Made by a program: the position numbers and the translations under genes
Origin: Clostridia bacterium
GTDB lineage: Bacteria > Bacillota > Clostridia > Oscillospirales > Acutalibacteraceae
Direction of reading: 5' to 3'
Length of the DNA: 64,000 bases
NCBI GenBank assembly: GCA_017442225.1
Contig: JAFSAR010000010.1
Coordinates: forward strand, 30,306-94,305
In this document: positions 11,156 to 62,851 of the stretch, in pieces
Layout: each line of letters starts with the position of its first letter
Numbering within the stretch: the first letter of the stretch is position 1
The notes under the pieces: generated by a model
Databases searched by the model: none
What the model was told of the DNA's origin: nothing
Seen by the model: the letters and a program-made list of their open reading frames with translations, nothing else

Positions 11156-11167
11156 GAGGTACGCTGA

Positions 11168-12406: not shown

Positions 12407-12412
12407 AGATAG

Positions 12413-12442: not shown

Positions 12443-12506
12443 TTAGTTTTTAAATATTCGATTATTCATTGCGAAAATCTGCTTGAATGATAAATAGTGA
12501 AATTAA

Positions 12507-12533
12507 CCGCCGCAAGAACAAACTTGCGGCGGG
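12507..12533 (-). terminator. Rho-independent terminator of the PqqD-like/ABC operon
   Basis: CCCGCCGCAAG-tttgtt-CTTGCGGCGG on the minus strand, directly after the ABC gene stop. Confidence 0.7.
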
Positions 12534-12545
12534 ATAATTATATAA

Positions 12546-42199: not shown

Positions 42200-43798
42200 A
42201 TGGATAATCGGACATTGCAAATTTTAATTGCTATGGTTATTTATATGGCAGTTGTAATTGTAATCGGCGTTTTGTTTGCAAAGCGCGCAAACAAAAGCTC
42301 TGAAAACTACTTTTTAGGCGGTCGTTCCTTGGGACCTTGGGTTACCGCTATGAGCGCCGAGGCGTCGGATATGAGTGGATGGCTGCTTATGGGATTACCC
42401 GGCGTTGCGTATTGGTGCGGACTTGCTGATGCGGCTTGGACTGCAATAGGTCTTGCTATAGGTACGTATCTTAATTGGCTTATTGTTTCAAAACGACTTC
42501 GCCGTTACAGTATACGGGCGAACAATTCAATCACTTTGCCCGAATTTTTCTCAAACCGCTTCCGTGAGAAGAATAAGGTTATACTCACACTGGCGGCGTT
42601 GTTTATACTTATATTCTTTACGGTTTATGCCGCAAGCTGCTTTGTGACCTGCGGTAAGTTATTTTCTACACTCTTTGGTACACCGTATATTGCAATGCTG
42701 ATTGTAGGCGCAATATTTGTACTGCTTTATACAATACTTGGCGGCTTCCTTGCGGAAAGCGCATCCGACTTTATGCAGGCTATCGTTATGATAGTAGCGC
42801 TTGCGGTAATCGTTATTATCGGCGTTGCAAATGCCGGTGGACTTGGCGCAGTTGTTGATAACGCGCGCGAAATCCCAGGATTTTTAGAGTTCTTTGGTAT
42901 CGCGTCTCCGTCACTTAATGAAGCAGGTGAGCAGATAGTTACAAACGGAAAACCTGTTTTTGATGCGGCAGGCGAGTACAGTATTTTAAGCGTATGCTCC
43001 TGTCTTGCTTGGGGACTCGGTTACTTTGGTATGCCGCAGGTACTGTTGCGCTTTATGGCTATTCGCCGTGAGGACGAGCTTAAGCGTTCAAGAAGAATCG
43101 CTATGATCTGGGTTGTAATTTCTCTTGCGGTTGCGGTATTTATAGGTATAATTGGCAGAGTTATTTCAATCAATAATCCCACCGCATTAAACGATATTCT
43201 TCTTACCAAATCAACTTCGGAAAATATTTTTATTGTTCTTTCGAAAAGCTTCTTACCACCGATATTGGCAGGATTTGTAATGGCGGGTATTCTGGCTGCT
43301 ACCATCAGCTCGTCTGACTCATATCTGCTTATTGCTGCTTCGTCGGTTTCTAAAAATATCTTCCAAGGTATTATAAAAAAGGATGCAAACGACAAGCAGG
43401 TTATGTGGGTTACGAGAATAACATTGTTAGTTATTGCGATAATCGCTATTATTATGGCGCTCGATGAAAAAAGTATTATTTTTGAAATAGTATCATTTGC
43501 TTGGTCGGGCTTTGGCGCAACCTTTGGTCCGCTTATGTTGTTCTCGCTTTTCTGGAAGCGCATTAACCGCGCGGGCGCTATTGCTGGTATGGTAAGCGGC
43601 GCTGCAAGCGTGTTTATCTGGAAACTTGTAATTGCTAAACTTGGCGGTGTGTTTGCGATTTACGAATTGCTTCCGGCATTTATTATTTCATCACTGTTTA
43701 TTGTTGCGGTATCTTTGATTACCGCACCGCCATCAAAGGAACTGCAAGAGGATTTTGATGCCGTAAAAAACGGAATGATAACCGAGCAGCAAAATTGA
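42200..43798 (+). CDS. putP: Sodium/proline symporter (SSF family)
   Basis: 532 aa. YFLGGRSLGPWVTAMSAEASDMSGWLLMGLPG is typical of PutP. Confidence 0.85.
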   Translation: MDNRTLQILIAMVIYMAVVIVIGVLFAKRANKSSENYFLGGRSLGPWVTAMSAEASDMSGWLLMGLPGVAYWCGLADAAWTAIGLAIGTYLNWLIVSKRLRRYSIRANNSITLPEFFSNRFREKNKVILTLAALFILIFFTVYAASCFVTCGKLFSTLFGTPYIAMLIVGAIFVLLYTILGGFLAESASDFMQAIVMIVALAVIVIIGVANAGGLGAVVDNAREIPGFLEFFGIASPSLNEAGEQIVTNGKPVFDAAGEYSILSVCSCLAWGLGYFGMPQVLLRFMAIRREDELKRSRRIAMIWVVISLAVAVFIGIIGRVISINNPTALNDILLTKSTSENIFIVLSKSFLPPILAGFVMAGILAATISSSDSYLLIAASSVSKNIFQGIIKKDANDKQVMWVTRITLLVIAIIAIIMALDEKSIIFEIVSFAWSGFGATFGPLMLFSLFWKRINRAGAIAGMVSGAASVFIWKLVIAKLGGVFAIYELLPAFIISSLFIVAVSLITAPPSKELQEDFDAVKNGMITEQQN

Positions 43799-43897: not shown

Positions 43898-43926
43898 TTG
43901 CAATTTTGATTTTAAAGGTGTATAAT
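43898..43926 (+). promoter_or_regulatory. Candidate promoter of the glycan operon (TTGCAA-17-TATAAT)
   Basis: TTGCAA at 43898-43903 and TATAAT at 43921-43926, 47 nt upstream of the first gene. Confidence 0.45.
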
Positions 43927-43973: not shown

Positions 43974-44588
43974 ATGTATCGTAATTTTTTTAAAAGATTG
44001 ATTGATATTTTTCTTTCCTTATTGGTTTTAACGATTTTATCTCCAATTTTATTAGTAAGTGCGTTAGCAATTAAGGTTGATTCAAAAGGTCCCGTGATTT
44101 TTAAACAAAAGCGTTTGGGACTTGGTGGAAAAGAGTTTTACATATACAAATTCCGTTCAATGTGTGTTGGCGCTGAAAAGAGTGGAGTTTATTCCGATAA
44201 TAACGATAAGCGTGTTACAAGGGTTGGCAATATTTTGCGTAAAACCAGTATTGATGAATTACCACAAGCCATTAACATACTTAAAGGTGATATGAGCTTT
44301 GTTGGTCCTCGTCCACCACTTACATATCATCCGTGGCCTATTGATGAGTATACAGCTGAGCAGCGTAGAATGTTTAATGTTCGACCAGGTATTACAGGTT
44401 GGGCGCAAGTAAATGGTCGAAAGGCTGTTGAATGGAACAGACGTATTGAGCTTAATAATTGGTATGTTGACAATATTTCGTTTTTGTTAGATATAAAAAT
44501 TTGTTTTATGACAATTTTTAAGGTTTTTACTAACGCAGATAATGAAAATGTTGGTGAAACAGTTGTAAAAGAAACTGTTAATAAGTAG
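43974..44588 (+). CDS. Small monotopic phosphoglycosyl transferase (PglC/WbaP-C-terminal type initiating sugar transferase)
   Basis: 204 aa. KRLIDIFLSLL re-entrant helix, KFRSM, DELPQ and FVGPRP motifs. Confidence 0.9.
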   Translation: MYRNFFKRLIDIFLSLLVLTILSPILLVSALAIKVDSKGPVIFKQKRLGLGGKEFYIYKFRSMCVGAEKSGVYSDNNDKRVTRVGNILRKTSIDELPQAINILKGDMSFVGPRPPLTYHPWPIDEYTAEQRRMFNVRPGITGWAQVNGRKAVEWNRRIELNNWYVDNISFLLDIKICFMTIFKVFTNADNENVGETVVKETVNK

Positions 44589-44596
44589 GTTTGCAT

Positions 44597-45427
44597 ATGG
44601 CACTAAAGTTAATGTATATAACAAATCGCACTGATATTGCAAAAATTGCCGAAGCGGCAGGTGTTGATCGCATTTTTGTTGATTTAGAATACATAGGTAA
44701 AAATATACGTCAAGGCGGTATGGATACAGTCCAAAATCGTCATACGCCAAGTGATGCTGCAGAAATTAAAAAAGTATTAAATAATGCACAGTTGTTGGTG
44801 AGAGTAAATCCTATACATAACTCAACTCAAGAATATTGTTCTACCGAAGAAGAAATTGATGCAGTAATAAATGCAGGTGCTGATATAATAATGCTCCCAT
44901 ATTTCAAAACGGCTGATGACGTAAAAAGATTTATCACAGCTGTAGATGGCAGAGCTAAAACAATGCTATTATTTGAAAGCGCCAAGTCGATTGAAAATAT
45001 CGATAGCATTTTGAAATTAGAGGGAATTGATGAAGTCTATATAGGACTTAATGATTTAAGTTTAGATTACGGTCGTAAATTTTTATTTTCGATTCTTGCG
45101 GATGGAACTGTCGAAAAAATAGCTAAAAAGTTTAAAGAAAAGAAATTACCTTTTGGGTTTGGTGGCATGGCAACACTCGACGGTGGCGCACTACCCGGTA
45201 AAAAAGTTTTACCCGAACACTATGCCTTGGGTTCTACTTGCGTTATTCTTTCACGTGCGTTTTGCAACACTAATGTTATTCAAGACTTGGATGAAATTAA
45301 AATTACTTTTGAAAATGGCGTAAAAAAAATACGTGAATATGAAGAATTTTGTTCAAAGCAAAACGAAGAATTTTTCTATAAAAATCATAGCGAACTTCAA
45401 AATATTGTAGATGAAATTTGTAAGTAA
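44597..45427 (+). CDS. HpcH/HpaI aldolase / citrate lyase beta-like TIM-barrel protein
   Basis: VDLEY, IMLPYFKT and ESAKSIENIDSIL..GIDEVYIGLNDLSLD resemble the HpcH/CitE/PEP-utilising barrel motifs. ATG at 44597. Confidence 0.65.
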   Translation: MALKLMYITNRTDIAKIAEAAGVDRIFVDLEYIGKNIRQGGMDTVQNRHTPSDAAEIKKVLNNAQLLVRVNPIHNSTQEYCSTEEEIDAVINAGADIIMLPYFKTADDVKRFITAVDGRAKTMLLFESAKSIENIDSILKLEGIDEVYIGLNDLSLDYGRKFLFSILADGTVEKIAKKFKEKKLPFGFGGMATLDGGALPGKKVLPEHYALGSTCVILSRAFCNTNVIQDLDEIKITFENGVKKIREYEEFCSKQNEEFFYKNHSELQNIVDEICK

Positions 45428-45438
45428 GAGGAATTTCT

Positions 45439-46344
45439 ATGAATCTATTAGTCACAGGTGCGTATAATTGCACACAAGAACAACTTAATAGAATTACTGA
45501 AATCGGCAATAATATAGTTTTTCACAAAATGGAAAAAGATGACTTACCTTGTTCTTATGATTGGGTAGAGGGTGTCATTTGTAACGGTTTGTTCCTGCAT
45601 CATCCCATTGAAAAATTTACTAATTTGAGGTTTATACAACTTACGAGTGCTGGCTATGATCGAGTTGATATGAATTATGTAAACGAGCATGATATTCAAA
45701 TATTTAATGCACGTGGTGTTTATAGTATACCAATGGCAGAATTCGCGGTGTGCGGTGTGCTTGATCTTTATAAACAAAGCAGATTTTTTTACGATAATCA
45801 AAAGCAACATCGTTGGGACAAGCACCGTGGACTTTTTGAACTTTTTGGTAAAACAGTGTGTATTGTAGGCAGTGGAAATGTTGGTACTGAGTGCGCAAAA
45901 CGCTTTAAAGCATTTGATACAACAGTTTACGCAGTAGATATTTGTAAGCCGCAAAGCGAAATATACGATAAATATTTTTCGCTTGAAAAAATAACCGATG
46001 CAATAAGTCAATCTGATGTTATAGTTTTAACACTTCCGCTTACTGAACAAACAAAATATATGTTTGATAAAAAAATGTTTTTATATTTTAAGTCAAATGC
46101 AATTTTAGTAAATATTGCTCGTGGAGCAATTGTAAATCAAGATGATTTAATTAATGCTTTGAATAATAAGCAACTTTATGGCGCGGTTTTAGATGTTTTT
46201 GAAACCGAACCACTCCAAGCCGACAGTCCGCTTTGGGATATGCCAAATGTAATTATTACTCCACACAATAGTTTTGTTGGGGAGGGTAATATGCAAAGAT
46301 TAACAAATATAATTTTATATAATCTGGAGATGTATAACAGATGA
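45439..46344 (+). CDS. D-isomer-specific 2-hydroxyacid dehydrogenase, NAD-binding
   Basis: GSGNVGTECAKR Rossmann motif and catalytic R (NIARG), E (FETEP) and H (TPH). Confidence 0.88.
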   Translation: MNLLVTGAYNCTQEQLNRITEIGNNIVFHKMEKDDLPCSYDWVEGVICNGLFLHHPIEKFTNLRFIQLTSAGYDRVDMNYVNEHDIQIFNARGVYSIPMAEFAVCGVLDLYKQSRFFYDNQKQHRWDKHRGLFELFGKTVCIVGSGNVGTECAKRFKAFDTTVYAVDICKPQSEIYDKYFSLEKITDAISQSDVIVLTLPLTEQTKYMFDKKMFLYFKSNAILVNIARGAIVNQDDLINALNNKQLYGAVLDVFETEPLQADSPLWDMPNVIITPHNSFVGEGNMQRLTNIILYNLEMYNR

Positions 46345-47942
46345 GTTTACGAATGTTTAAAGATGAAATTAAGGCGACTCTTGATGTTTCACCTAAATAC
46401 CGCGATCTGCTTTTTAGAAGAGGATATATTTTTACCGATAAGCCTTTAGCGGATACGGCTAATTATCCGTTTTATGGATTGTGGAATCAAAAAAACATAG
46501 GCAGTTACTATTTGTATGTCCAGCAAAGTCAAACGGTTTGCAGTGCAACACAAAATGGTATTAGTGCTGTAATAATTGGACATGCATATAATCCGTTTGA
46601 TATGAAGTATGATGAAAATGAGATTTGTCTTGATTTAATTTCTGCATATTCTCAAAACATAGAAACATATTTTGATAAAGTTTCTGAACTTACTGGACTC
46701 CATATTATAATTTTAATTGATGGTCAAAATGTTATTGCTTGCCAAGACGCTTGCTCACTTACAGGTTGTTATTTTGGTAAAGTAAATGATACTATGTATA
46801 TTACCGAGCATCCGCAACTTGTAGCAGACATATGTGATCTTAAAATAAACAAAAAGGTTGAAAAACTTGTCCAATCAAAGTGTTACAATATTGGTAATAG
46901 AAATTTACCAGGCAATATAACACCATATGACGAATTAAAGCGTTTGGGTGCTAATACTTATTTGAATTATGATGGTAAGTTTGATATTAAACGTTTTTAT
47001 CCAACATTGCCACATCCGGAATTTGTTACAGAAGAAGAAAAAACTGAAAATATTAAAAAAATTGGCGACCTTATAAATCGAGGTATTGAGTGTTGCTCTA
47101 AAAAGTGGAACAGATGTACCATTTCTCTATCTGGTGGTACTGACAGCAAAACAACCCTTGCGTGCGCAAACGGTTTATATGATAAGTTTTCATATTTTAG
47201 TTTTCATTCTAAACCACAGGAGTTGGTTGATGCTAAAGGTGCGGCAAAAATTTGTGAAAATTTAGGTCTTGAACACACTCTTTATAATATTCCTCAAGAA
47301 AATAGTGAAATAAAAGATTTTGATTTTATAAAAAAGATATTACAACATAATACTAATTATTTTGTAAATCTTGCTGACAACGAAATAAGAAAATACATAT
47401 ATCTTAATCGCCTCGATGCTTATGATATTGAACTTAAATCTTGGGCGTCTGAAGTGGCACGAGTTTTCTTTGAAAGAAAATATAAAATCAAAATGCCAAA
47501 ACGGCTAAATGAAAGGCATTTAAGTATTTTTCAAACAAGGTTTTTTGGTCATCCGATTTTGCTTCGTTGGACTGATAAAGAATATTATAAGTTTTTACGT
47601 GAAATAGGTTTGGAAAAGCCTATACATAATTTTGAACATACAGATTTAATATATTGGGAAGTACGTATGGCTTCGTGGGGTGTATCTGTTGTTTCTTCAC
47701 AGCAACTATATCACCGAACAACCATGCCTATAAATAATCGTAAAATTTTAGAATTGTTTTTATCTTTCCCACATGAAGAAAGAAAGTCTGATTCAGTACA
47801 TAAACGAATTATGGAATATAAAAATAAGGCTATCGTTGAAGCTGATGTTGAAATTGCAAATTTATACTTTCATAGTTATCGAATATTAATGGAGAAAGCC
47901 TATTACTATTTAAGAACTTTATTTTATCATCCCAAAAAATAA
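46341..47942 (+). CDS. Divergent asparagine-synthetase-fold protein: PP-loop adenylating domain with an N-terminal domain lacking the Cys nucleophile
   Basis: PP-loop ISLSGGTDSK near residue 265. The N-terminal LTGLHIIILIDGQNVIACQDACSLTGCYF resembles the AsnB L.G.FAF.L.D....L.RD..G..PLY block. The protein starts MSLRMF with no Cys2. Confidence 0.55.
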   Translation: MSLRMFKDEIKATLDVSPKYRDLLFRRGYIFTDKPLADTANYPFYGLWNQKNIGSYYLYVQQSQTVCSATQNGISAVIIGHAYNPFDMKYDENEICLDLISAYSQNIETYFDKVSELTGLHIIILIDGQNVIACQDACSLTGCYFGKVNDTMYITEHPQLVADICDLKINKKVEKLVQSKCYNIGNRNLPGNITPYDELKRLGANTYLNYDGKFDIKRFYPTLPHPEFVTEEEKTENIKKIGDLINRGIECCSKKWNRCTISLSGGTDSKTTLACANGLYDKFSYFSFHSKPQELVDAKGAAKICENLGLEHTLYNIPQENSEIKDFDFIKKILQHNTNYFVNLADNEIRKYIYLNRLDAYDIELKSWASEVARVFFERKYKIKMPKRLNERHLSIFQTRFFGHPILLRWTDKEYYKFLREIGLEKPIHNFEHTDLIYWEVRMASWGVSVVSSQQLYHRTTMPINNRKILELFLSFPHEERKSDSVHKRIMEYKNKAIVEADVEIANLYFHSYRILMEKAYYYLRTLFYHPKK

Positions 47943-47959: not shown

Positions 47960-49066
47960 TTGAAATTCGTTTTAATTTCTCCCAAAAACCGAACTGTTTA
48001 TAATTTCCGTGGTGATCTTATAAAAGAGATTATTAGTAGAGGATATGAGGTAATTGTAACCGGTCCTGACAGTATTGATGTGGATAAAATAACTGCTTTG
48101 GGTGCAAGATTTGTTGAAATACCCATGAACAAAAATGGTACAAGTATTTTAGGAGACATCAAATATTGCAAAAATTTATATAAATTGTTTAAAAATGAAA
48201 AACCAGATATTACATTGGGCTATACCGTAAAACCTGTTGTGTATGGTGCAATTGCGGCAAAATTTGCAGGTGTAAAAAATATAAACAGTATGGTTACTGG
48301 TGGTGGTTATACCTTTACTGCCAAAACATTTAAGGCAAAGATTTTAGGCCTTATTGTTAGATGTTTATACAAAATTGGTTTTTCAAAAGCCAATAACGTA
48401 ATTTTTCAAAATTCAGATGATCTTAATGAGTTTTGCGACAGGAAGTTGGTTAAGCGCGACAAGTGCAATGTAGTAAATGGTTCGGGTGTTAATACTTCGC
48501 ACTTTTTACCGACTGATTATCCACAAACAACTACGTTTTTTATGCTTTCAAGATTGCTTAAAAGTAAGGGTGTTGTCGAGTATCTTGAAGCGGCAAAAAT
48601 TGTAAAAACAAGATATCCAGAAGTGCGCTTTTGTCTGCTTGGTAAATATGAAACAAATATGCAGGACGCTTTGTCAAAAGAATATGTTGAGACGTTTATT
48701 GCAGATGGTGTTATAGAACGATTCGAAGAAACAAACGATGTAAGGCCATATTATGCTGATTGTAGCGTGTATGTTTTGCCATCTTATCGAGAGGGTACAC
48801 CGCGCACGGTGCTTGAAGCAATGGCGATGGGCAGACCAATCATTACTACCGATACAAACGGCTGTAGAGATACTGTTATTGATGGAAAAAATGGTTTTTT
48901 AGTGACGATTGGTAATAGTAGTCAGCTTGCAGATGCAATGATTAAATTTGTTGAAAATGCTGAATTGATTAAAACAATGGGTGAAGAAAGTGTTATTTAC
49001 TGCCACCAGAAATTTAATGTTAATAAAGTTAATTGTGATATGATTAATATTTTGGGGGTGTCGTAA
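47960..49066 (+). CDS. Glycosyltransferase family 4 (GT-B)
   Basis: EGTPRTVLEAMAMGRPIITTD..G E(x7)E-type motif. TTG start with GAGGTG RBS. Confidence 0.85.
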   Translation: MKFVLISPKNRTVYNFRGDLIKEIISRGYEVIVTGPDSIDVDKITALGARFVEIPMNKNGTSILGDIKYCKNLYKLFKNEKPDITLGYTVKPVVYGAIAAKFAGVKNINSMVTGGGYTFTAKTFKAKILGLIVRCLYKIGFSKANNVIFQNSDDLNEFCDRKLVKRDKCNVVNGSGVNTSHFLPTDYPQTTTFFMLSRLLKSKGVVEYLEAAKIVKTRYPEVRFCLLGKYETNMQDALSKEYVETFIADGVIERFEETNDVRPYYADCSVYVLPSYREGTPRTVLEAMAMGRPIITTDTNGCRDTVIDGKNGFLVTIGNSSQLADAMIKFVENAELIKTMGEESVIYCHQKFNVNKVNCDMINILGVS

Positions 49067-49067
49067 T

Positions 49068-50144
49068 TTGCAAAAACCACTACAACGAAATAATAACATT
49101 GAAATTTTAAGAATAATAGCAATGTTTATGATTATTGCCGGTCACGCTATAACGCATACAGATATTTATGACAATGTTGGTGAAATTAATTTTTATTTTG
49201 TAAAATTTTTTGATATTGTTTTTAATGTTGCTACAAACGTTTATGTAGTTATTTCAGGCTATTTGTTATGTGAAAAAACTTTTAAGATCAAAAAGGTTTT
49301 TAATTTGTGGTTTCAGATTTTATTTTATTCTGTAATCATTTATCTTGTTTTAGTTGCAACTAAACAAATAGAATTTAGTTTAACAAGCATCGTTAAAGTT
49401 TTGATGCCTGTTTCCGGAAATCAGTATTGGTTTGCTCGGGTATATTTAGGATTATATATTTTATCTCCATTTTTAAATCTTCTTATAAAAAGTTTAAATC
49501 AAAAACAATTTCAATGCCTTTTGGTTGTTTTGACAATACTTTTTTCTTTGTGGGGAAGTTTTATACCATTTGCAACGACGCTTAATGCCGAGGGCGGAAA
49601 CAGTATAATTTGGTTTTGTGTTTTATATATGTTTGCTGCATATATAAGAATTTATGGAGTACCACTAAAGTCAAACAAGGCTTTAATTGGTTTGACAATG
49701 TCGTTTTTTGTATTTGCTTTTTTATCAAGCGTTGTGCTCGAAAAGCTATCATTAATGATTGGACTTGGCGGTAAGGGTGCCAGTCAGTTTACAACCTTTA
49801 ATTCATTTACTATGTTGTTTGGTGCTGTTGGCCTTTTATGCATAGCTGTGAAGCTACCACACATAAATAAATTCAGCAAAGTAATACAATGGTTTTCATT
49901 AAGTACATTTAGTGTATATTTAATTCACGATAACAAATATTTAAGACATATTTTATGGGAATTTTTGAGAATCGATGATCTTGCGGATGAATTTTATATA
50001 GTTCCATATATTTTGTTAACTTCTGTAGCAATATTTGTTGTATGCGCATGTTTGGATAAAGTTATTTATATACCATTAAATAAATTTGTTTCAAAAATTA
50101 GTTTCAAAAAATTACAATCAAAAATAGATTCTTATATAATATAA
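49068..50144 (+). CDS. Acyltransferase family 3 membrane protein (probable O-acetyltransferase)
   Basis: NNNIEILRIIAMFMIIAGH N-terminus and about 10 TM helices. Confidence 0.8.
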   Translation: MQKPLQRNNNIEILRIIAMFMIIAGHAITHTDIYDNVGEINFYFVKFFDIVFNVATNVYVVISGYLLCEKTFKIKKVFNLWFQILFYSVIIYLVLVATKQIEFSLTSIVKVLMPVSGNQYWFARVYLGLYILSPFLNLLIKSLNQKQFQCLLVVLTILFSLWGSFIPFATTLNAEGGNSIIWFCVLYMFAAYIRIYGVPLKSNKALIGLTMSFFVFAFLSSVVLEKLSLMIGLGGKGASQFTTFNSFTMLFGAVGLLCIAVKLPHINKFSKVIQWFSLSTFSVYLIHDNKYLRHILWEFLRIDDLADEFYIVPYILLTSVAIFVVCACLDKVIYIPLNKFVSKISFKKLQSKIDSYII

Positions 50145-50165: not shown

Positions 50166-51485
50166 ATGTCACTTTATGAGAAAATTGTTAATGGGGAAGA
50201 AAAAATTTCGCTTGTAGGTCTTGGTTACGTTGGTATGCCTATAGCCGTATCTTTTGCAAAAAAGGTTAAGGTTGTCGGCTTTGACCTTAACGCCAAAAAG
50301 ATTGAGCTTTACAAGTCGGGCATTGACCCTACAAACGAAGTAGGCGATGAAGTTATTAAAAACACTACCGTTGAGTTTACTGCTGATGAATCAAAGCTTC
50401 GTGAAGCAAAATTCCATATTGTTGCTGTACCTACCCCTGTAAATGACGACCATACGCCCGATTTAACACCTGTTGAGGGCGCTTCAACAATAGTTGGTCG
50501 CAACATTACCAAAGGCTCAATTGTAGTTTATGAGTCTACTGTTTACCCCGGTGTTACCGAGGATATTTGTATTCCGATTTTGGAACGCGAATCGGGTCTT
50601 AAATGCGGTGTGGACTTTAAGGTTGGTTATAGCCCTGAGCGTATTAACCCGGGCGACAAGGTTCACCGCCTTGAAACAATTGTTAAAATTGTAAGCGGTA
50701 TGGACGAAGAATCACTCGAGGAAATTGCTAACGTTTACGAGCTTGTTGTTGAGGCAGGCGTTCATCGCGCCGAAAGCATCAAGGTTGCTGAGGCTGCAAA
50801 GGTAATCGAAAATAGCCAACGTGATATTAACATTGCCTTTATGAACGAGCTTTCTATTATCTTTAATAAAATGGGTATTGATACACAGTCGGTACTTAAG
50901 GCTGCAGGCACAAAATGGAATTTCTTAAAGTTTTATCCGGGTCTTGTTGGCGGTCACTGTATAGGTGTTGACCCATATTACCTTACATACAAGGCAGAAC
51001 AGCTTGGTTATCACAGCCAAATTATTCTCTCAGGTCGTCGTATAAATGATGATATGGGCAAGTACGTTGCTGAAAGTGTTGTTAAAAATCTTATAAAAGC
51101 TGATTTGCCAATTAAGAATGCAAAGGTTGCGATTTTGGGCTTTACTTTCAAAGAAAATTGCCCCGATACCCGCAACACAAAGATTATTGATATTTATAAC
51201 GAGCTTAAAGAGTATGGTATAACTGCAACTGTTGCTGACCCCGCGGCAGATGCCGATGAAGCCGAGCACCTTTACGGTATGAAATTTGTAGATATTTCTA
51301 CCATTAAAGATTGTGATGTGGTTATACTTGCCGTTGCTCATGAACAGTTTAAGTCGCTTACACAAGCTGATTTTGACAAAATGTTCAAATCAGTTGAGAA
51401 TAACAAAAAGGTTCTTGCAGACATTAAAGGTTTGCTTAACCGTAAAGAATATGAAACTGCTGGCTATAATTATTGGAGATTATAA
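50166..51485 (+). CDS. UDP-N-acetylhexosamine 6-dehydrogenase (TviB/WbpO-like nucleotide sugar dehydrogenase)
   Basis: Collinear with my recollection of Salmonella TviB: GLGYVGMP, VPTPV..PDLTP, VVYESTVYPG, GYSPERINPGDK, ESIKVAEAAKVIEN.QRD and GLVGGHCIGVDPYYL. Confidence 0.88.
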   Translation: MSLYEKIVNGEEKISLVGLGYVGMPIAVSFAKKVKVVGFDLNAKKIELYKSGIDPTNEVGDEVIKNTTVEFTADESKLREAKFHIVAVPTPVNDDHTPDLTPVEGASTIVGRNITKGSIVVYESTVYPGVTEDICIPILERESGLKCGVDFKVGYSPERINPGDKVHRLETIVKIVSGMDEESLEEIANVYELVVEAGVHRAESIKVAEAAKVIENSQRDINIAFMNELSIIFNKMGIDTQSVLKAAGTKWNFLKFYPGLVGGHCIGVDPYYLTYKAEQLGYHSQIILSGRRINDDMGKYVAESVVKNLIKADLPIKNAKVAILGFTFKENCPDTRNTKIIDIYNELKEYGITATVADPAADADEAEHLYGMKFVDISTIKDCDVVILAVAHEQFKSLTQADFDKMFKSVENNKKVLADIKGLLNRKEYETAGYNYWRL

Positions 51486-51502: not shown

Positions 51503-53029
51503 ATGTCAAAGAGTAGAAATTTATTAAAATCAATAACACATTCACTTGGGAATGGTGCATACAAGAAAAAATTAAGAAAAAAACCAGAACTGTTCTTTAC
51601 GTTAAGACAGATTTGTGAGAATGTCGGCTTAAATTTAGAAAATCTTGATGATGTTGTTAGAATAAATTTGGACAAAACAGTTTCATATGTATGTCGTTAT
51701 GGTGACCGCTTTACAAAAGATTGTATTTGTGTTCAATTATATGATGATAGCGATAACATAATGAAAAAAGCTATAAGTGAAGGCGCCCTGGTTTGTGTGA
51801 CCGACCACAAAATAGAGGGCTTGCCATGTATAATTGTTGATAATCCATATGCCACTTATGCTGATATGTGTAGTATTATACGCGATACAGCACAGATAAA
51901 ATCAACTGTTATTGTTGGAAGTATCGGTAAAACAACAACAAAAAAAATGGTTGCATCGGTTTATAAACAAGCATTTAACACCCATTGTGATTCTGGAAAT
52001 GATAACATACTTGACAGTATAGGATCTATTTGTCAGCATATTCCTGCAAAATCAGAACAATTAGTTGCTGAGATTAGTGAGGATACGCCTGGACTTATTG
52101 AACAAATGTCAAAAATCGTTAAACCAGAAATTGCTATTATAACGACTATTGATAAATCTCATATTGAATTTTACGGAAGTGAAGAAAACATTTTTAATGA
52201 ATTTCGTTCTGTAACAAAACATATGCGCGAAGATGGTATATGCATTATGAGTATGGATGAAGAAAATGCTAGGAGCCTTATAGAAAATAGAAAGGTTGTA
52301 TTCGTTTCTGTTAATGACGAAAATGCTGATTTTTTTGCTGCTAATATTAATGTTGATACCGAAGGATTAAATTTTGATATTATTGAAAAGGCAACTCAAA
52401 AAACATATGCTATTAAGCTTTATAATTCTTATGCAATACATAATGTTACAGCGGCATTAATAGCTTTTGCAGCCGGTGTTGTAAATGGTATTGACTATAA
52501 TAAAATCGTTAACGGTCTTGCATCTTACAGAGCTACCGGAATTCGCCAAAATATATATAATGCTGGTAGTAAAATCGTTTACGCTGATTGTTATAATGCA
52601 GTAGCAAAGTCGGTTCGTTCTGCAGTAAATGCAGCATGTGATATTCCTATTAAAGGTAAAAGGATAGCAGTTTTAGGCGATATTGCCGAAGCAGGAGATT
52701 ATACAGAATCAACGCATATGGAAATAGCAGAAATTGTTAATAATTCTGATTTTGATATTCTATTAACCTTTGGTGAAGAGTTAAAAAAGGCTATTTCAAA
52801 TACCACGATGAGAAACGATCTCACCATTATGATGTTTGAAACACAAAAAGATATGAATAAAGCATTAAAAAAGATGTTAAAAAAAGGCGATCTTGTTTTG
52901 TTTAAAGCAAGTCACAGGGCAAATCTTGAAGCTTCTATTGCAAGTGTATTTACGCTTTCATATTTATATCAATCAATAAAATATTATACTCCGCGAATTT
53001 TATGGCATTTTAAAGTTATATTAAATTAA
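51503..53029 (+). CDS. Mur ligase family protein, MurF-like (divergent N-terminal domain)
   Basis: P-loop VGSIGKTTTKKM, AEISEDTPGLIEQMSKIVKPEIAIITTIDKSHIEFYGS (MurF GEI..L..PD..VITNI..AHLE.FGS block), DCYNA, VLGDIAEAGDY...H and the C-terminal GDLVLFKASHR. The MurF N-terminal DSR and DGH motifs are not recognisable. Confidence 0.75.
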   Translation: MSKSRNLLKSITHSLGNGAYKKKLRKKPELFFTLRQICENVGLNLENLDDVVRINLDKTVSYVCRYGDRFTKDCICVQLYDDSDNIMKKAISEGALVCVTDHKIEGLPCIIVDNPYATYADMCSIIRDTAQIKSTVIVGSIGKTTTKKMVASVYKQAFNTHCDSGNDNILDSIGSICQHIPAKSEQLVAEISEDTPGLIEQMSKIVKPEIAIITTIDKSHIEFYGSEENIFNEFRSVTKHMREDGICIMSMDEENARSLIENRKVVFVSVNDENADFFAANINVDTEGLNFDIIEKATQKTYAIKLYNSYAIHNVTAALIAFAAGVVNGIDYNKIVNGLASYRATGIRQNIYNAGSKIVYADCYNAVAKSVRSAVNAACDIPIKGKRIAVLGDIAEAGDYTESTHMEIAEIVNNSDFDILLTFGEELKKAISNTTMRNDLTIMMFETQKDMNKALKKMLKKGDLVLFKASHRANLEASIASVFTLSYLYQSIKYYTPRILWHFKVILN

Positions 53030-53043: not shown

Positions 53044-54018
53044 ATGGGTTATAAACATCTAAAGTTTCCTGAAAATACTTTGTTTTTGGTAACAGGTGCT
53101 GCCGGTTTTATTGGTAGCAACCTATGCGAAGCAATACTTGATTTAGGTTATAAGGTTCGTGCCTTAGATGACTTTTCAACAGGTAAGCAAGCAAATGTCG
53201 ATTTGTTTCTTGATAATCCAAACTATGAGTTTATCAAAGGTGATATCAAAGATTTAGATACTTGTATGAAAGCATGCGAAGATGTAGATTTTGTGCTTAA
53301 TCAAGCAGCTTGGGGCAGTGTACCTCGTAGCCTTGAAATGCCTATTTTCTACTGTCGCAACAATATTGAAGGCACCCTTAATATGTTAGAGGCTGCTCGT
53401 CAATGTGGTGTTAAAAAGTTTGTTTATGCTTCAAGTTCTTCCGTTTATGGTGATGAGCCTAATCTTCCTAAAACCGAGGGAAGAGAGGGTAACCTTTTGT
53501 CACCATATGCTCTTACAAAACGCTGTGATGAAGAGTGGGCAAAGCTTTATACAATGCATTATGGACTTGATACCTACGGTATGCGTTATTTTAACGTGTT
53601 TGGTCGTCGTCAGGATCCTGATGGTGCATACGCGGCTGTTATTCCTAAATTCTTAAAGATGCTACTTCACGGCGAAAAACCAACTATAAATGGTGATGGC
53701 AAACAAAGTCGTGACTTTACATACATTGATAACGTTATCGAGGCTAACTTAAAAGCTTGTCTTGCGCCACACGAGGCGGCAGGCGAGGCATATAACATAG
53801 CCTATGGTGGTCGTGAGTATCTTATTGATATTTACTACGGTCTTACCAAGGCTTTGGGTGTTGATATCGAGCCAAACTTTGGCCCTGATCGTAAGGGTGA
53901 TATTAAACACTCTAACGCAGACATTAGCAAAGCAAAACGTCTCCTCGGCTACGACCCTGATTACAGCTTTACTGACGGTATAAAACTTGCTATAGAGTGG
54001 TATAAGGAGAACTTATAA
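53044..54018 (+). CDS. UDP-N-acetylhexosamine(uronic acid) 4-epimerase (TviC/WbpP-like SDR)
   Basis: VTGAAGFIGSN, AAWGSVPRS, SSSSVYGD, SPYALTK, RYFNVFGRRQDP.GAYAAVIP and GDGKQSRDF are collinear with TviC/WbpP as I recall them. Confidence 0.88.
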   Translation: MGYKHLKFPENTLFLVTGAAGFIGSNLCEAILDLGYKVRALDDFSTGKQANVDLFLDNPNYEFIKGDIKDLDTCMKACEDVDFVLNQAAWGSVPRSLEMPIFYCRNNIEGTLNMLEAARQCGVKKFVYASSSSVYGDEPNLPKTEGREGNLLSPYALTKRCDEEWAKLYTMHYGLDTYGMRYFNVFGRRQDPDGAYAAVIPKFLKMLLHGEKPTINGDGKQSRDFTYIDNVIEANLKACLAPHEAAGEAYNIAYGGREYLIDIYYGLTKALGVDIEPNFGPDRKGDIKHSNADISKAKRLLGYDPDYSFTDGIKLAIEWYKENL

Positions 54019-55838
54019 TGAGTGGTATTTGCGGATTTATTGACATCAGCAAAAAATTTAATAAAGAAGATATGCTGAATGCGATTACCGCAATGAATTC
54101 GGCATTATATGCTTCTAATGACGGTTATATATATCAGGATGATGATTGTATAATTGGTAAAAGTGATAATTACGCTGACAACGATTCATTCATTGTCTTT
54201 TTTTACGGCGAACTCTATAATAAGCAATCTTTATGTAAAATTTACGATTTTACTGCAAATAATGAGGCACAACTTGTCTTGGCAGGTTATGAAAAATTCG
54301 GTGACGATTTTTTTAAGCAGTTAAGCGGCAAGTTTGTATTTGTAATTTACGACAAAAAAACAAAAAAACTTACTGTTATTCGCGACAAGGTCGGCTCAAA
54401 GCAAATGTATTATTATAAAAATGAAGATTGCTTTGTTTTTTGTACTGAACTTGCCGGATTGCTTGCAACAAATATTGTACCAAAAAAAATCGACAAAGTA
54501 TCTCTATCACAGTTTTTGCAACTTACCTATATACCGGCTCCTCAGTGTATTATAGAAAATGTAAAAAAGGTTAAGCCGGCTGTTGTTTTCTGCTTGGATT
54601 CATACGCCAATATTTTTGAAAATGATTATTGGACACTTACACATTCTATTGATGAAAAGTACACTGATTTTGAAGTATGTAAAGCCGAACTTAATGATTT
54701 GCTTTATGCATCGGTAAAAGAAAAAATGGCATTGTATCCTGATTCAGGTGCATTTTTAAGTGGTGGTTTTGATTCGTCGATTGTTGTTAGTGTAATGTCG
54801 GATATTTCTGACACACCTATAAGAACCTTTACAATCGGTTATGATGAAAAGCAATTTGATGAAAGCGAGCTTGCAGGGTTGGTTGCCAAAAAAAACAATA
54901 CCAATCACACAGTTCTTAATTTAGATTGGGATGCTGTTGTTGACAATATAGATACCGTTTTAAATGGTGTTGACGAGCCATATGGCGATTCTTCACTTAT
55001 TGCTACGTATGCCGTATGTAAGCTTGCTAAAGAGCATACAGACGTTGCTTTTATGGGTGATGCGGGTGATGAGCTTTTTGCCGGATACAACAAATATTTA
55101 ATTTCTTATTATGGTGGTAAGTATAAAAAAATACCCAAATTTTTACGCAAGGGTATAATCGAACCTATTTCAAAACTTCTTCCACGCAAAAGTAGTCTAT
55201 ACCGTAAGGTTAACAAGGTTATTTCTTCTGCAGATATGCCAATATTTGAACAAAGAAAACGACTTATGAGTCTTGGATTTAAAGCAGAAGAATTAAAAAA
55301 GCTTATGCTTGACGGTTATGTTGACTCGATGAATTTTATTAAGGAAAACTATGAGTTTTTAGAGAATTCTGATGAGCAAACCCGCGCGCAGTATGTTGAT
55401 TTTAAGACAGTTTTAGAGGGTGATATGCTACCAAAGGTAGAGCTTGCAAGTCGTCTATCAGGTCTTAAGACGTGTGCTCCAATTTTAGATGATAAAATTA
55501 TTGATTTTGCATATAGCATACCAACTGATTTTAAAATTAACAAAACCAACAGGAAGATTATTTTAAAAGAAACGTTCAGACATCTTTTGCCCGAAGAATT
55601 GTTTACAGCACCCAAGCATGGTTTTGCAGTGCCGATAGGCAATTGGCTTGAAACAAATTTAAAAGATAAGCTTTTGAAATTTGCGAGTAAAGATTTTCTC
55701 GAAAAACAAGGCCTGTTCAACTATGACTATATAAATATGATAATCGATGAACATTTTAATCATAAAAAGAACAGATATAGTGAGTTGTGGGCGTTTTTTG
55801 TTTTTCAGAATTGGTATAAAAAATATATTGAACAATAA
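54018..55838 (+). CDS. Asparagine synthetase B-family amidoligase with atypical N-terminus and a degenerate glutaminase domain
   Basis: PP-loop AFLSGGFDSS, GDAGDELFAGY and L.GKFVFVIYD..L.VIRDKVG..MYY blocks. The N-terminus is MSGICGF rather than MCG. The start ATG shares one nt with the upstream stop (TAATG). Confidence 0.85.
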   Translation: MSGICGFIDISKKFNKEDMLNAITAMNSALYASNDGYIYQDDDCIIGKSDNYADNDSFIVFFYGELYNKQSLCKIYDFTANNEAQLVLAGYEKFGDDFFKQLSGKFVFVIYDKKTKKLTVIRDKVGSKQMYYYKNEDCFVFCTELAGLLATNIVPKKIDKVSLSQFLQLTYIPAPQCIIENVKKVKPAVVFCLDSYANIFENDYWTLTHSIDEKYTDFEVCKAELNDLLYASVKEKMALYPDSGAFLSGGFDSSIVVSVMSDISDTPIRTFTIGYDEKQFDESELAGLVAKKNNTNHTVLNLDWDAVVDNIDTVLNGVDEPYGDSSLIATYAVCKLAKEHTDVAFMGDAGDELFAGYNKYLISYYGGKYKKIPKFLRKGIIEPISKLLPRKSSLYRKVNKVISSADMPIFEQRKRLMSLGFKAEELKKLMLDGYVDSMNFIKENYEFLENSDEQTRAQYVDFKTVLEGDMLPKVELASRLSGLKTCAPILDDKIIDFAYSIPTDFKINKTNRKIILKETFRHLLPEELFTAPKHGFAVPIGNWLETNLKDKLLKFASKDFLEKQGLFNYDYINMIIDEHFNHKKNRYSELWAFFVFQNWYKKYIEQ

Positions 55839-55840: not shown

Positions 55841-56662
55841 ATGGATATGATGAAACAAGGACATATTTCAGTCATTATGGCAACCTATAATTGTGCCGAT
55901 ACTTTACGTCAAAGTGTTGATTCGGTTTTGGCACAAACGTACACGGATTATAAATTTATAATTTGTGATGATTGCTCTACTGATGATACATACTCAATAT
56001 TAAAACAGTATGAGGCTGATTATCCCGATAAGTTTTTGATAATTAAAAATGAAAAAAATTCAAAGTTGCCATTTTCGCTTAATCATTGCTTAAAATATGC
56101 TGATGGTGAATATTGTGCGCGTATGGACGGTGACGATTATATCGCGCCTGACCGTTTTGAAAAGCAGGTAGAGTTTTTAAAAAATAATCCCGACATACAG
56201 CTTGTTGGTTGTGCGTTGCAGACATTTGATGACAAAAAGGGTATGGGTAGGATAATATATTGTCGTGAATACCCCGAAAAACTCCATCTTTTAGATGCTC
56301 CTTGTTTTCCGCATGCAGCAATTATGACCTATACAAGTGTGTATAATGCTCTTGGCGGATACACTGTATCGAAGCGAACTGTGCGTTCACAGGATTATGA
56401 TCTTTGGTTTAGGTTTTTTGCCAAAGGCTTTAAAGGTGCAAATTTGCAAGAACCTCTTTACTTTATGCGTGAAGATGAATTTTCCTTCCTTAGAAGGAAA
56501 CCTCGACTCTACTTATGGCTTATGGTAACTAAATGGAAAGGTTATCGTTTGCTAAAATTTCCGCTTAAATATTATTGGCACATTTTATTACCGCTTGTTG
56601 CTCTTTTTAGAAATGAAACAAGAAAACTGAAGGCAAAAACGTCTCTAAAAAGTAAAAAATAA
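55841..56662 (+). CDS. Glycosyltransferase family 2
   Basis: ISVIMATYNCADTLRQSVDSVLAQTY..FIICDDCSTDDT and DGDD (DxD). The start could be the ATG at 55847 or 55850. Confidence 0.88.
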   Translation: MDMMKQGHISVIMATYNCADTLRQSVDSVLAQTYTDYKFIICDDCSTDDTYSILKQYEADYPDKFLIIKNEKNSKLPFSLNHCLKYADGEYCARMDGDDYIAPDRFEKQVEFLKNNPDIQLVGCALQTFDDKKGMGRIIYCREYPEKLHLLDAPCFPHAAIMTYTSVYNALGGYTVSKRTVRSQDYDLWFRFFAKGFKGANLQEPLYFMREDEFSFLRRKPRLYLWLMVTKWKGYRLLKFPLKYYWHILLPLVALFRNETRKLKAKTSLKSKK

Positions 56663-56691: not shown

Positions 56692-57783
56692 ATGATTTCT
56701 TATATTATTGTTTTTTTTATTGTTGGTGTGTTTGCCTGGCTTGCAGAAAAAAGTCACAAAGAAGTTACCGATCTTACAGGCGATGTTCTACATAAAAAAA
56801 CAACAAGTACAATTATATTTTTAATTATTGCCGGCGGACTGCTTACTGCTATGGCAGGTCTGCGTTATCACGTTGGTACAGACTATAAAAACTATATTTA
56901 TTTATATGAAACTTTTTATTCAAAACAAAGTTTAAAAGAGCTTTTGGTTATTGATAATGAACCAATGTTACCGATTATTGGCCATTTTTCACATAAGTTT
57001 TTTGATTCATATTATGCTATGTTCTTTTTTGCTTCCGTCATCTCGGTCGGTATAGTTATTTATAGCACTTACACAGAAACTACAGATTTTCTTTATACAA
57101 CAATGCTTTACATTTTTGCCGGCGGTTTTGTTGGTTCGTTCAATGGCATTAGGCAATTTATGGCGGTTGCAATTGTGTTTTTAGGTAGGCGTTTTATTGT
57201 AGAACGTAAGTTTTGGAAATATCTTTTGGTTTGCTTTATTGCTTTTTTGGCGCATAAATCTGCACTGTTTTGTATTTTGTTCTATTTTGTTTATACTAAA
57301 AAATTCTCTACAAAGCGACTCTTAATAATACTTATAATTACAATATTCTTCTCTATTAATTATGAAACTATATTTGATTTTATTGGATGGATGAATGATG
57401 CTGAATTTGTTGCAGATGCATACGCATCAACAAGTGTTAATGTGTTCAGAACATTAGTTGGTTGTTGTCCTGCTATAATGGGTCTTTATTTTGCATATAA
57501 CAAAAAGGATTTAGATGACCAACAAGTATTTTATATTTATATATTAGTTATTAATGCTGCAACGCGTATAGTAACATCTGATAGTGCATATCTCGCACGT
57601 CTTGCGTGTTATCCTACGGTTTTTGTACCGCTGGGTCTTGGCTATCTAACTGACCTTTGCAGTCAAAAGTATTATAAGGTATTTAGAGCGGGAATTTTGA
57701 TTTTGTATATGGCTTTTTGGTTATATGAAGTATTAAATACAAAAACATTACGCGAATTTGAATGGATTTTTGGAAATATGTAA
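56692..57783 (+). CDS. EpsG-family membrane protein (Wzy-like polymerase candidate)
   Basis: About 10 TM helices and the GLRYHVGTDYKNY motif typical of the EpsG family. Confidence 0.75.
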   Translation: MISYIIVFFIVGVFAWLAEKSHKEVTDLTGDVLHKKTTSTIIFLIIAGGLLTAMAGLRYHVGTDYKNYIYLYETFYSKQSLKELLVIDNEPMLPIIGHFSHKFFDSYYAMFFFASVISVGIVIYSTYTETTDFLYTTMLYIFAGGFVGSFNGIRQFMAVAIVFLGRRFIVERKFWKYLLVCFIAFLAHKSALFCILFYFVYTKKFSTKRLLIILIITIFFSINYETIFDFIGWMNDAEFVADAYASTSVNVFRTLVGCCPAIMGLYFAYNKKDLDDQQVFYIYILVINAATRIVTSDSAYLARLACYPTVFVPLGLGYLTDLCSQKYYKVFRAGILILYMAFWLYEVLNTKTLREFEWIFGNM

Positions 57784-57806
57784 TTTGTATTTGGGGTGAA
57801 ATGATT

Positions 57807-60839: not shown

Positions 60840-60854
60840 GGAGCGAAATTAATA

Positions 60855-61721: not shown

Positions 61722-61724
61722 TTT

Positions 61725-62810: not shown

Positions 62811-62851
62811 ACAATTTATTCACAATTGCAATTTTAGAAGGTTAATTTAGT

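Follow-up and report, generated by a model that had tools for sequence, protein, structure and literature searches.

The window analyzed here is a 64,000-nucleotide stretch of a Clostridia bacterium of the Acutalibacteraceae (GenBank assembly GCA_017442225.1, contig JAFSAR010000010.1, positions 30,306 to 94,305 of the forward strand). The genome has a G+C content of about 35%. Near the start of a surface-polysaccharide locus that extends over about 24 kb lies a three-gene module that encodes a divergent HpcH/HpaI-like triosephosphate isomerase (TIM) barrel, a D-2-hydroxyacid dehydrogenase, and a 533-residue protein of the AsnB fold, which we call PPL533. The module is flanked by a phosphoglycosyl transferase (PGT) and a GT4 glycosyltransferase. 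An initial annotation, made from the sequence alone, proposed that the three enzymes may make a D-2-hydroxy acid (lactate, glycerate, or malate-like) and ligate it, or ligate an amine to it, on the repeat unit. The features concerned are the following.

43898..43926, + strand: promoter-like site TTGCAA-17-TATAAT ahead of the PGT gene (consensus scan, 10/12 matches)
43974..44588, + strand: small monotopic PGT, 204 residues, the initiating enzyme (PF02397 Bac_transf, E 5e-69)
44597..45427, + strand: divergent HpcH/HpaI-like TIM barrel, 276 residues (PF03328, E 1.7e-12)
45439..46344, + strand: NAD-type D-isomer-specific 2-hydroxyacid dehydrogenase, 301 residues (PF02826, PF00389)
46341..47942, + strand: PPL533, a 533-residue AsnB-fold protein with a PP-loop ATP-pyrophosphatase domain and without a glutaminase nucleophile (Foldseek, hhalign)
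47124..47150, + strand: PP-loop SLSGGTDSK of PPL533, residues 262-270 (read from the sequence)
47960..49066, + strand: GT4 glycosyltransferase with a Glyco_trans_4_2 N-domain (Pfam)

The genes are tightly packed. The PGT ends at TAG 44586-44588, and the barrel gene runs from ATG 44597, the start used by its homologues (an in-frame TTG at 44591 lies two codons upstream), to TAA 45425-45427. A gap of 11 nt with AAGAGGA inside separates it from the dehydrogenase ATG at 45439. The dehydrogenase stop (TGA, 46342-46344) overlaps the PPL533 start (ATG, 46341-46343) in an ATGA junction, and PPL533 ends at TAA 47940-47942. The close packing, the overlap, and the position directly after the PGT were thus described correctly at the outset, except that the first gap had been counted as 12 nt. 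No terminator-like site was found on the + strand between 43600 and 50300, and Rfam returned no riboswitch or other RNA near the module. The short gap, the overlap, and the lack of an internal terminator-like site favor transcription as an operon. The promoter-like site at 43898..43926 is a possible operon start and a candidate only, since such sites are no more frequent in the region than in shuffled sequence, which makes it weak evidence.

The module recurs well beyond the window. Scanning one genome per species returned 79 loci with a PPL533 homologue, 48 of which had enough flanking DNA; a metagenome scan for the barrel returned 80 loci, 23 with enough flank; and all open reading frames (ORFs) of 59 loci were clustered de novo. 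In the PPL533 sample, the dehydrogenase is present in 43/48 loci, the PGT in 41/48, the barrel in 38/48, and all three in 36/48, confirming the triad as an association that persists across genomes. Immediately upstream of the PPL533 homologue stands the dehydrogenase gene in 23 of these loci, the uronic-acid dehydrogenase gene TviB in 10, and the barrel gene in 5. Every locus of the barrel sample has the PGT adjacent (23/23), with the dehydrogenase in 16/23 and a PPL533 homologue in 8/23; a PglF-like 4,6-dehydratase occurs in 13/23 and an aminotransferase or decarboxylase pair in 5-6/23. No partner keeps company with the PGT as closely as the barrel does, and the PGTs of related loci are 55-90% identical. 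Beyond the PGT and the module, de novo clustering of the 59 loci yielded no near-universal partners other than two GT4 clusters (34/59 and 19/59), both of which match the window GT4 in size and in position after the module.

Recurrence in dozens of unrelated genomes, on which the three samples agree, shows that the module is not a chance adjacency. It is a real unit, as first supposed, but its limits had been drawn too narrowly: the conserved cassette also includes the PGT upstream and the Glyco_trans_4_2-type GT4 downstream, which is probably its second-sugar transferase. Hosts include Oscillospiraceae, Acutalibacteraceae, Ruminococcus, Christensenella, Enterococcus, a Bacillales isolate, Erysipelotrichaceae, Desulfobacteraceae, Bacteroidota, Lentisphaerota, TA06, WOR-3, and one metagenome-assembled genome (MAG) of a Pacearchaeota (DPANN archaeon). 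Cultured carriers of the cassette are Ruminococcus sp. JE7B6, whose genome is complete, Enterococcus eurekensis CCUG 61259, Faecousia intestinalis CLA-AA-H192, and Chengkuizengella axinellae. What emerges is a conserved cross-phylum cassette assembled from known folds, one of which belongs to an unnamed AsnB-fold family. Our searches of the literature, Pfam, and NCBIfam found no characterized pathway with this gene combination, in agreement with the initial annotation, which knew of none.

PPL533 is the least familiar of the three proteins. Its close relatives number 719, and the sole name among the best 120 is 'hypothetical protein'; at 50% clustering the family comprises 201 clusters with E <= 1e-30 and 2674 with E <= 1e-3, and it has no Pfam or NCBIfam model of its own. 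The counterpart from a goat-rectum Clostridia MAG is 96% identical. No NCBIfam family matches PPL533, no PDB sequence reaches an E below 0.02, and Pfam places PF00733 (Asn_synthase) on residues 257-321 only (25.4 bits against a cut-off of 21; 65/354 profile positions). An AlphaFold model built with 25 homologues (pLDDT 83, pTM 0.88) is nonetheless matched by Foldseek over the whole chain to the two-domain AsnB fold, with a predicted N-terminal nucleophile (Ntn)-type N-domain and an ATP-pyrophosphatase C-domain. Carbapenam synthetase (1q15, E 1e-13) and beta-lactam synthetase are the top matches, followed by TsnB9, CarA, E. coli AsnB, and human asparagine synthetase (ASNS), with an overall E of 1e-9 to 1e-13; PurF and GlmS match through the Ntn-type N-domain alone. 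Comparison of PPL533 with AsnB by hhalign (E 1e-3, probability 22%) is collinear over 389 columns and pairs GHAYN with NGEIYN, PP-loop with PP-loop, and DNE348 with GDE.

The model and the Foldseek search, which served as the remote-homology check, thus agree with the AsnB-like N-terminal domain read from the sequence at first, as they do with a Cys-less PP-loop enzyme nearest to the beta-lactam and carbapenam synthetases; the mid-chain PP-loop SLSGGTDSK likewise stands at residues 262-270. All three original fold assignments are sustained, by Pfam for the barrel and the dehydrogenase and by Foldseek for PPL533. The MSLRMF start was also read correctly: the first 60 residues contain no Cys, the homologues share the same N-terminus, and an in-frame stop two codons upstream makes a longer N-terminus impossible. 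Across 44 family members (31-96% identical), at least 98% keep the PP-loop residues S262, G265, G266, D268, and S269 (SLSGGTDS, residues 262-269), together with K255, W256, S287, D297, K351, E364, E371, R374, E440, N465-R467, R481, and R514. Beta-lactam synthetase has a catalytic Tyr-Glu dyad and a Lys at its cyclization site; as counterparts of these, the family-wide invariants K351, E364, E371, and R374 are candidates only. A sulfur-transfer or Fe-S PP-loop enzyme of the TtuA or LarE type was considered and rejected: six Cys are invariant in close homologues, and none is conserved family-wide.

The beta-lactam and carbapenam synthetases (1jgt, 1q15; E 1e-11 to 1e-13) resemble PPL533 in their two-domain AsnB fold and in an Ntn-like N-domain that is retained without its catalytic Cys. 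They adenylate a carboxylate at the PP-loop, which is then attacked by nitrogen, a chemistry that fold and motif suggest for PPL533 as well. PPL533 is, however, only 11-13% identical to them, and its N-domain is highly conserved (GHAYNPF) rather than vestigial. Moreover, the synthetases close a lactam within one small molecule and belong to antibiotic clusters, whereas PPL533 is found in surface-glycan loci; all of its neighbors are glycan-assembly genes, and none belongs to a beta-lactam biosynthetic cluster. A second point of comparison is provided by the glutamine-dependent AsnB-type amidotransferases of polysaccharide loci (e.g., WbpS of P. aeruginosa and TIGR03108, XrtA/PEP-CTERM). They share the fold and PP-loop, and conversion of a glycan carboxylate to an amide is the presumed role of both groups; in Proteobacteria, an AsnB of this kind is coupled to the barrel. 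PPL533 differs from them in having no N-terminal Cys, no BLAST-level similarity, and a Pfam match over 65 residues only.

Several other members of the PPL533 family deserve mention. Some loci carry two paralogues, about 32-33% identical to the window protein (L001, 206-1870; L009, 6787-8283; L033; L049, 5941-7467; L numbers denote the loci compared), which suggests that two separate carboxylates are modified. Among ten long relatives, nine have no Pfam domain in the extra region and one has a GT28 C-terminal domain there. A plasmid collection contained only two matches, both distant. One of these, on E. coli plasmid pCE1537-B (L170, NZ_MT162140.1, 46652-48997), is a 781-residue 'asparagine synthase-related protein' whose C-terminal part resembles PPL533 and whose first 350 or so residues have no assignment; its gene comes immediately after wecB and wecC in a capsule locus of the ABC-transporter type.

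The dehydrogenase matches PF02826 (E 2e-54) and PF00389 (E 2e-11), and the motifs GSGNVG, YAVD, NIARG, FETEP, and TPHNS can be read in its sequence. The Asp of YAVD suggests an NAD-type site, and the Arg, Glu, and His within these motifs are, by family motif, the predicted catalytic residues. No NCBIfam equivalog reaches its cut-off (best 198 bits versus 400), so the enzyme falls into no subfamily of known substrate. Its closest matches in the PDB are generic 2-hydroxyacid, phosphoglycerate, and glyoxylate reductases. By sequence, nothing sets it apart from other D-2-hydroxyacid dehydrogenases.

The barrel matches PF03328 (HpcH_HpaI) at 47.5 bits against a cut-off of 25, and its profile finds YfaU in the PDB at E 1.4e-9, with only the metal-ligand segment aligned; its structure model has a pLDDT of 94. 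Residues D29, E31, K35, R38, R69, E127, N152, D153, H208, and R220 are invariant across clades, as is R119. E127 and D153 (276-residue numbering) align with the metal ligands of YfaU and HpaI and are invariant in the Firmicute and Proteobacterial clades alike. R69, in VRVNP, is invariant and corresponds in strand order to Arg70 of HpaI, with a weak hidden Markov model alignment of that segment. The barrel thus resembles the class II pyruvate aldolases HpaI, YfaU (RhmA), and GarL in its TIM barrel, Glu/Asp ligands, candidate catalytic Arg, and Pfam family. It departs from them in a Tyr in place of His45, a basic lid, GLNDLS instead of GPxDLS, extra invariant Arg, Lys, and His residues, and equivalog scores about one tenth of the cut-offs; it is also encoded beside a PGT in glycan loci, not in catabolic operons. 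The lid, about 14 residues long (GKxxRQGG...), is conserved and inserted after the first strand. We read the protein as a divergent member of the PEP/pyruvate-binding barrel superfamily (PEP, phosphoenolpyruvate) that would still stabilize a pyruvate enolate on its metal, with a partner substrate that is probably anionic. The original label of HpcH-type aldolase therefore survives in its Pfam family and metal ligands and fails as a description of a typical HpaI, given the Tyr, the lid, and a structural tie with pyruvate kinases.

Two other activities were rejected for the barrel. PEP mutases carry the signature EDKxxxxxNS; the barrel has a weak PF13714 match (E 0.004) but lacks this signature, and its metal ligands are of the HpaI type. 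Phosphotransfer of the pyruvate kinase kind requires a catalytic Lys two residues before the Glu ligand, where the barrel has an invariant Leu. The plasmid collection held only two barrel matches, both from Rhodobacterales.

The loci in which the cassette varies are informative about its chemistry. In L121 (9899-13706), a PglF-like dehydratase is followed by the barrel, a pyridoxal phosphate (PLP) enzyme resembling diaminopimelate (DAP) decarboxylase, the PGT, and a class IV aminotransferase, with no dehydrogenase. L150 appears to have the same order with a shorter epimerase/dehydratase gene of the short-chain dehydrogenase/reductase (SDR) family in first place, again without the dehydrogenase; its annotated decarboxylase and PGT (9983-12754) are followed by a 320-residue ORF. 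PPL533 is combined with the same decarboxylase type and the PGT in L032 (9989-13514). In some Firmicute loci, the dehydrogenase and PPL533 are separated by an ATPgrasp_ST ligase (PF14397, an ATP-grasp type whose name reflects an association with sugar transfer), and in the L136 group such an extra ligase and an NhaC-type transporter surround PPL533. L001 combines alanine racemase, Ddl (D-Ala-D-Ala ligase), a MurF-like ligase, and PPL533, with neither barrel nor dehydrogenase.

The Proteobacterial barrel, 33-36% identical with the same invariant residues, directly follows a dedicated AsnB and occurs without the dehydrogenase; the two genes mostly overlap at start and stop or lie a few bases apart. 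These AsnBs start with MCGIFG and are 66-72% identical to each other and 26% to the AsnB of the window. The usual order is DegT-CBS, AsnB, barrel, NeuB, a PglD-like acetyltransferase, and NeuC, often with a divergent PGT beside it. The operon from DegT-CBS to NeuC is conserved in L169, L173, L174, L176, L178, and L179 and has the look of a nonulosonic-acid pathway. No SDR 4,6-dehydratase lies inside it (one is found about 8 kb downstream in L178), and the AsnB-barrel pair occupies the region. L175 differs: there the pair has a PGT on one side and two GT4 genes on the other, and a PglF-like dehydratase is close by.

One rule covers these variants: the barrel is accompanied by an enzyme for a C2 carbonyl, either a reductase or an aminotransferase, and by an enzyme for a C1 carboxylate, which amidates through an AsnB fold or decarboxylates. 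Such partners would be expected if the barrel product were a 2-oxo acid. A shared 2-oxo-acid intermediate is likewise suggested because the aminotransferase and PLP decarboxylase replace the dehydrogenase, all three acting at C1 or C2. The dehydrogenase, the class IV aminotransferase, and the DAP-decarboxylase-like enzyme also share a D-stereocenter logic. The earlier proposal that the dehydrogenase reduces a 2-oxo acid made by the barrel gains indirect support from this replacement.

Our tentative explanation is that the three genes of the module, with the PGT and GT4 on either side, make up a mobile cassette for glycan tailoring whose enzymes act sequentially, converting a pyruvate- or PEP-derived acid to a hydroxy-acid amide. 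In the first step, the metal-dependent barrel would form a pyruvate enolate, or use PEP, and join it to a carbonyl acceptor to give a 3-deoxy-2-oxo acid. The dehydrogenase, going by its family and context, would then use NADH to reduce C2 to a D-2-hydroxy acid. Finally, PPL533, whose fold and motifs are those of an adenylating enzyme, would adenylate the carboxylate at its PP-loop and pass the acyl group to a nitrogen nucleophile. The simplest such nucleophile would be free ammonia, which is abundant in gut and rumen, because PPL533 lacks the glutaminase cysteine and the minimal cassette contains no amine-making enzyme; the product would be a D-2-hydroxy-acid amide. The first sugar of the repeat unit is the most likely carrier of the decoration, because a conserved PGT of its own always accompanies the cassette. 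The HpaI-type metal ligands E127 and D153 and the candidate catalytic R69, present in every clade, would favor 2-oxo-acid chemistry, and carboxylate amidation appears to be favored by the barrel-AsnB coupling in Proteobacteria and by the AsnB fold, PP-loop, and DNE motif of PPL533. TviB is present in only 20/48 loci; elsewhere, the dehydrogenase product is the sole carboxylate encoded by the locus.

The joining of the acid to the glycan is the part of the initial annotation that found no support. Ligation to an amine of the repeat unit lacks a genetic basis because the complete locus (window plus continuation contig) contains neither a sugar aminotransferase nor a 4,6-dehydratase, and because a DegT aminotransferase probe of about 160 related loci found only a 161-residue fragment in L084/L085 and one place in L124. 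An amide linkage to an amino sugar is therefore unlikely. Such a linkage does have a model in Neisseria PglB2, a PGT fused to an ATP-grasp domain that makes a glyceramido-acetamido-trideoxyhexose (PMC11130364). In both cases the first sugar, transferred by the PGT, would carry an amide derived from a hydroxy acid, and the genes for ligase and PGT are linked. The module differs in having no ATP-grasp, and a dehydratase and an aminotransferase, from which PglB2 would receive its 4-amino sugar, are missing from the whole locus. Papers on Neisseria mention an ORF co-inserted with pglB2 without naming its product. Two linkages may need no further gene, namely an ester made by PPL533 or a C-C bond made by the barrel on a keto sugar.

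Several observations weigh against the hydroxy-acid amide cassette and keep our confidence below an even balance. Its enzymatic steps are drawn from sequence, model, and gene context. The barrel fails every NCBIfam equivalog (HpaI, RhmA, GarL, CitE; best 31 bits versus 369), and Foldseek ties pyruvate kinase barrels with the HpaI, YfaU, and HpcH aldolases (E about 1e-10, TM about 0.6). The counterpart of HpaI His45 is Tyr (DLEY, not D-x-E-H), with Y, W, V, or H in Proteobacteria, and the GLNDLS motif and many invariant basic residues recall PEP-using enzymes. At least 90% of the 44 members of the PPL533 family retain GHAYNPF in the N-domain, and this domain could serve a function outside the model. 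PPL533 homologues occur without the dehydrogenase in 5/48 loci and stand directly after TviB in 10/48, usually with TviC next, and the relative beside wecB and wecC in L170 suggests that some members of the family, at the least, act on a uronic acid. Finally, the window locus supplies no amino sugar and no keto sugar through which the unit could be linked to the glycan.

The best surviving alternative is a specific version of this explanation, in which the aldolase itself makes the sugar link. The barrel would add pyruvate to C4 of a nucleotide-linked 4-keto-6-deoxy-hexose, the dehydrogenase would reduce the side-chain 2'-oxo group, PPL533 would make the side-chain carboxamide, and the dedicated PGT would transfer the finished branched sugar. 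The model compound is shewanellose of Shewanella putrefaciens A6, 2-acetamido-2,6-dideoxy-4-C-(3'-carboxamide-2',2'-dihydroxypropyl)-D-galactose, reported together with an 8-epilegionaminic acid derivative (PMC4052302). Formally, it equals pyruvate on a 4-keto-6-deoxy-N-acetylhexosamine that is then amidated, and its side chain is the one expected from pyruvate aldol addition and AsnB-type amidation. By analogy, the chemistry fits the Proteobacterial AsnB-barrel pair well, with its glutamine-dependent AsnB, its lack of a dehydrogenase, and its usual place in nonulosonic-acid loci; the L175 pair, whose neighborhood includes a PGT, two GT4 genes, and a PglF-like dehydratase, points the same way. 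It would also fit the Firmicute barrel-sampled loci, 13/23 of which have a PglF-like dehydratase preceding the PGT and no complete DegT aminotransferase to use its product. No separate transferase is required for attachment, the conserved PGT of the cassette finds an explanation, and the invariant basic residues and basic lid of the barrel would suit an anionic nucleotide substrate.

Against this stand the complete locus of the window, which has no 4,6-dehydratase to supply the acceptor, and the distribution of that enzyme, found within 10 kb in only 7/38 PPL533-sampled loci with a barrel and in 14/59 loci overall. Five loci without a barrel nevertheless hold the PglF-like dehydratase, PGT, dehydrogenase, a Ddl-like ATP-grasp, and PPL533; they also have the GT4, except L011, and L028 and L057 have TviB and TviC in addition. 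Shewanellose itself keeps a hydrated keto group that is not reduced, and the connection to it is by chemical logic only, no synthesis gene being known. Because most PPL533 loci, the window included, lack the dehydratase, we keep the branched-sugar route as a rival and consider it improbable as an account of the cassette, and equally improbable the broader claim that the barrel is a C-C-forming aldolase on nucleotide sugars that, together with an AsnB-fold amidating enzyme, builds shewanellose-type C-branched sugars.

Somewhat less probable still is that PPL533, as an amidoligase dependent on ammonia or an amine, modifies N-acetylglucosaminuronic or N-acetylgalactosaminuronic acid (GlcNAcA/GalNAcA) at the C6 carboxylate, with the barrel and dehydrogenase serving another step. 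The homologues placed directly after TviB would fit, as would the L170 relative, which follows the genes for UDP-ManNAcA (wecB, wecC), and the relative fused to a GT28-type glycosyltransferase domain. A precedent is Cj1438 of C. jejuni, which amidates a uronic acid in an ATP-dependent manner after its incorporation into the chain (PMC11800397). In that HS:2 glucuronamide pathway (Cj1436, Cj1437, Cj1438C, Cj1435; PMC11800397), an aminotransferase and PLP decarboxylase branch feeds the capsule-sugar amide, which resembles the aminotransferase/decarboxylase variant of the cassette; the enzyme families are different, however, the acid is a uronic acid, and there is no barrel or 2-hydroxyacid dehydrogenase. 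The association of PPL533 with the dehydrogenase (43/48) is much stronger than that with TviB (20/48). In the window, it is the canonical AsnB whose start (54018) overlaps the TviC stop, while PPL533 overlaps the dehydrogenase stop, and the independent coupling of barrel and AsnB in Proteobacteria also speaks against a uronamide.

In a final alternative, the barrel is no aldolase but a decarboxylase or PEP-using enzyme that yields a pyruvate-like 2-oxo acid, from which a VanH-like dehydrogenase makes D-lactate or another simple D-hydroxy acid for peptide or depsipeptide side chains assembled by Ddl, MurF-like, TupA-like, and PPL533 ligases. Oxaloacetate decarboxylation is a common side activity of the HpcH/HpaI-type fold; Ddl, a MurF-like ligase, and a TupA-type ATP-grasp are all encoded in the window locus; in related loci, the dehydrogenase occurs together with PPL533 and a ligase of the Ddl-like or ATPgrasp_ST type; and the L001 ligase set is consistent with such side chains. 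We regard this as a long shot, as pyruvate does not require a dedicated enzyme, Ddl and MurF-like ligases accompany PPL533 in only 9/48 and 6/48 loci, so that a VanH-like role cannot be general, and of all partners the barrel is tied most closely to the PGT.

The hydroxy-acid amide cassette, if correctly read, is of some consequence. It is common in gut and rumen Clostridia and spread across phyla, and none of its three enzymes has an assignable substrate. Solving the pathway would add a glycan building block and a function for a family of at least 200 clusters at 50% identity, and would show the work of a glutaminase-less AsnB fold outside antibiotic and lasso-peptide pathways. It might also explain the biosynthesis of C-branched sugars such as shewanellose; were the barrel a nucleotide-sugar aldolase, the cassette family would reveal that biosynthesis, and gut Firmicutes, marine Proteobacteria, and other phyla would be predicted to begin surface glycans with its reduced (dehydrogenase), aminated (aminotransferase), and decarboxylated analogues. 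The rule that joins the barrel to C2- and C1-tailoring enzymes can serve as an annotation aid for many orphan glycan loci.

The remainder of the locus follows the cassette.

49068-50144: acyltransferase-3
50166-51485, + strand: TviB-like UDP-GlcNAc 6-dehydrogenase (NCBIfam, Pfam)
51503-53029, + strand: MurF-like ligase (NCBIfam, Pfam)
53044-54018, + strand: TviC-like 4-epimerase (NCBIfam, Pfam)
54018-55838, + strand: full-length AsnB-type amidotransferase with glutaminase domain (PF00733, E 2e-73, plus GATase_7)
55841-56662: GT2
56692-57783: EpsG-type polymerase
57762-58733: D-Ala-D-Ala ligase (Ddl)
58765-59715: TupA-type ATP-grasp
59730-63868: further transferases

At the 3' end, taken from an identical contig, the genes for LicD, a probable flippase, and a VanZ-nucleotidyltransferase protein precede spo0A. 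The VanZ protein is a 590-residue fusion of a VanZ-like and an NTP_transf_5 nucleotidyltransferase domain just before spo0A (L167, 13384-15156, the continuation of the window contig). A 521-residue protein at the locus end was considered as a PPL533 paralogue and set aside, as it has no similarity to PPL533 and a weak MatE match; it is probably the flippase.

The locus contains four or five amide-forming enzymes, among them the MurF-like ligase, Ddl, the TupA-type ATP-grasp, and the full AsnB, beside the TviB- and TviC-like genes. This set suggests a uronic-acid polymer bearing amino acids or a D-Ala-D-Ala dipeptide, like teichuronopeptide. MurF-like and Ddl pairs appear again in several related loci (L001, L041, L045, L078). 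The AsnB of the window reads MSGICGF (54018-54035), which places its catalytic Cys at residue 5 rather than residue 2; either the ATT immediately ahead of the Cys codon serves as the start or a propeptide of four residues is cleaved off. The gene at 60855-61721 encodes a 288-residue protein that matches PF24793 (E 6e-24), the N-terminal domain of eukaryotic glucosamine inositolphosphorylceramide transferase 1. A sodium:solute symporter gene (42200-43798) lies just upstream of the PGT on the same strand, and an NhaC-family transporter gene lies directly 3' of the PPL533 homologue in several loci (L083, 11392-12762; L136, 14362-15735); these transporters may import a precursor or may bear no relation to the cassette.

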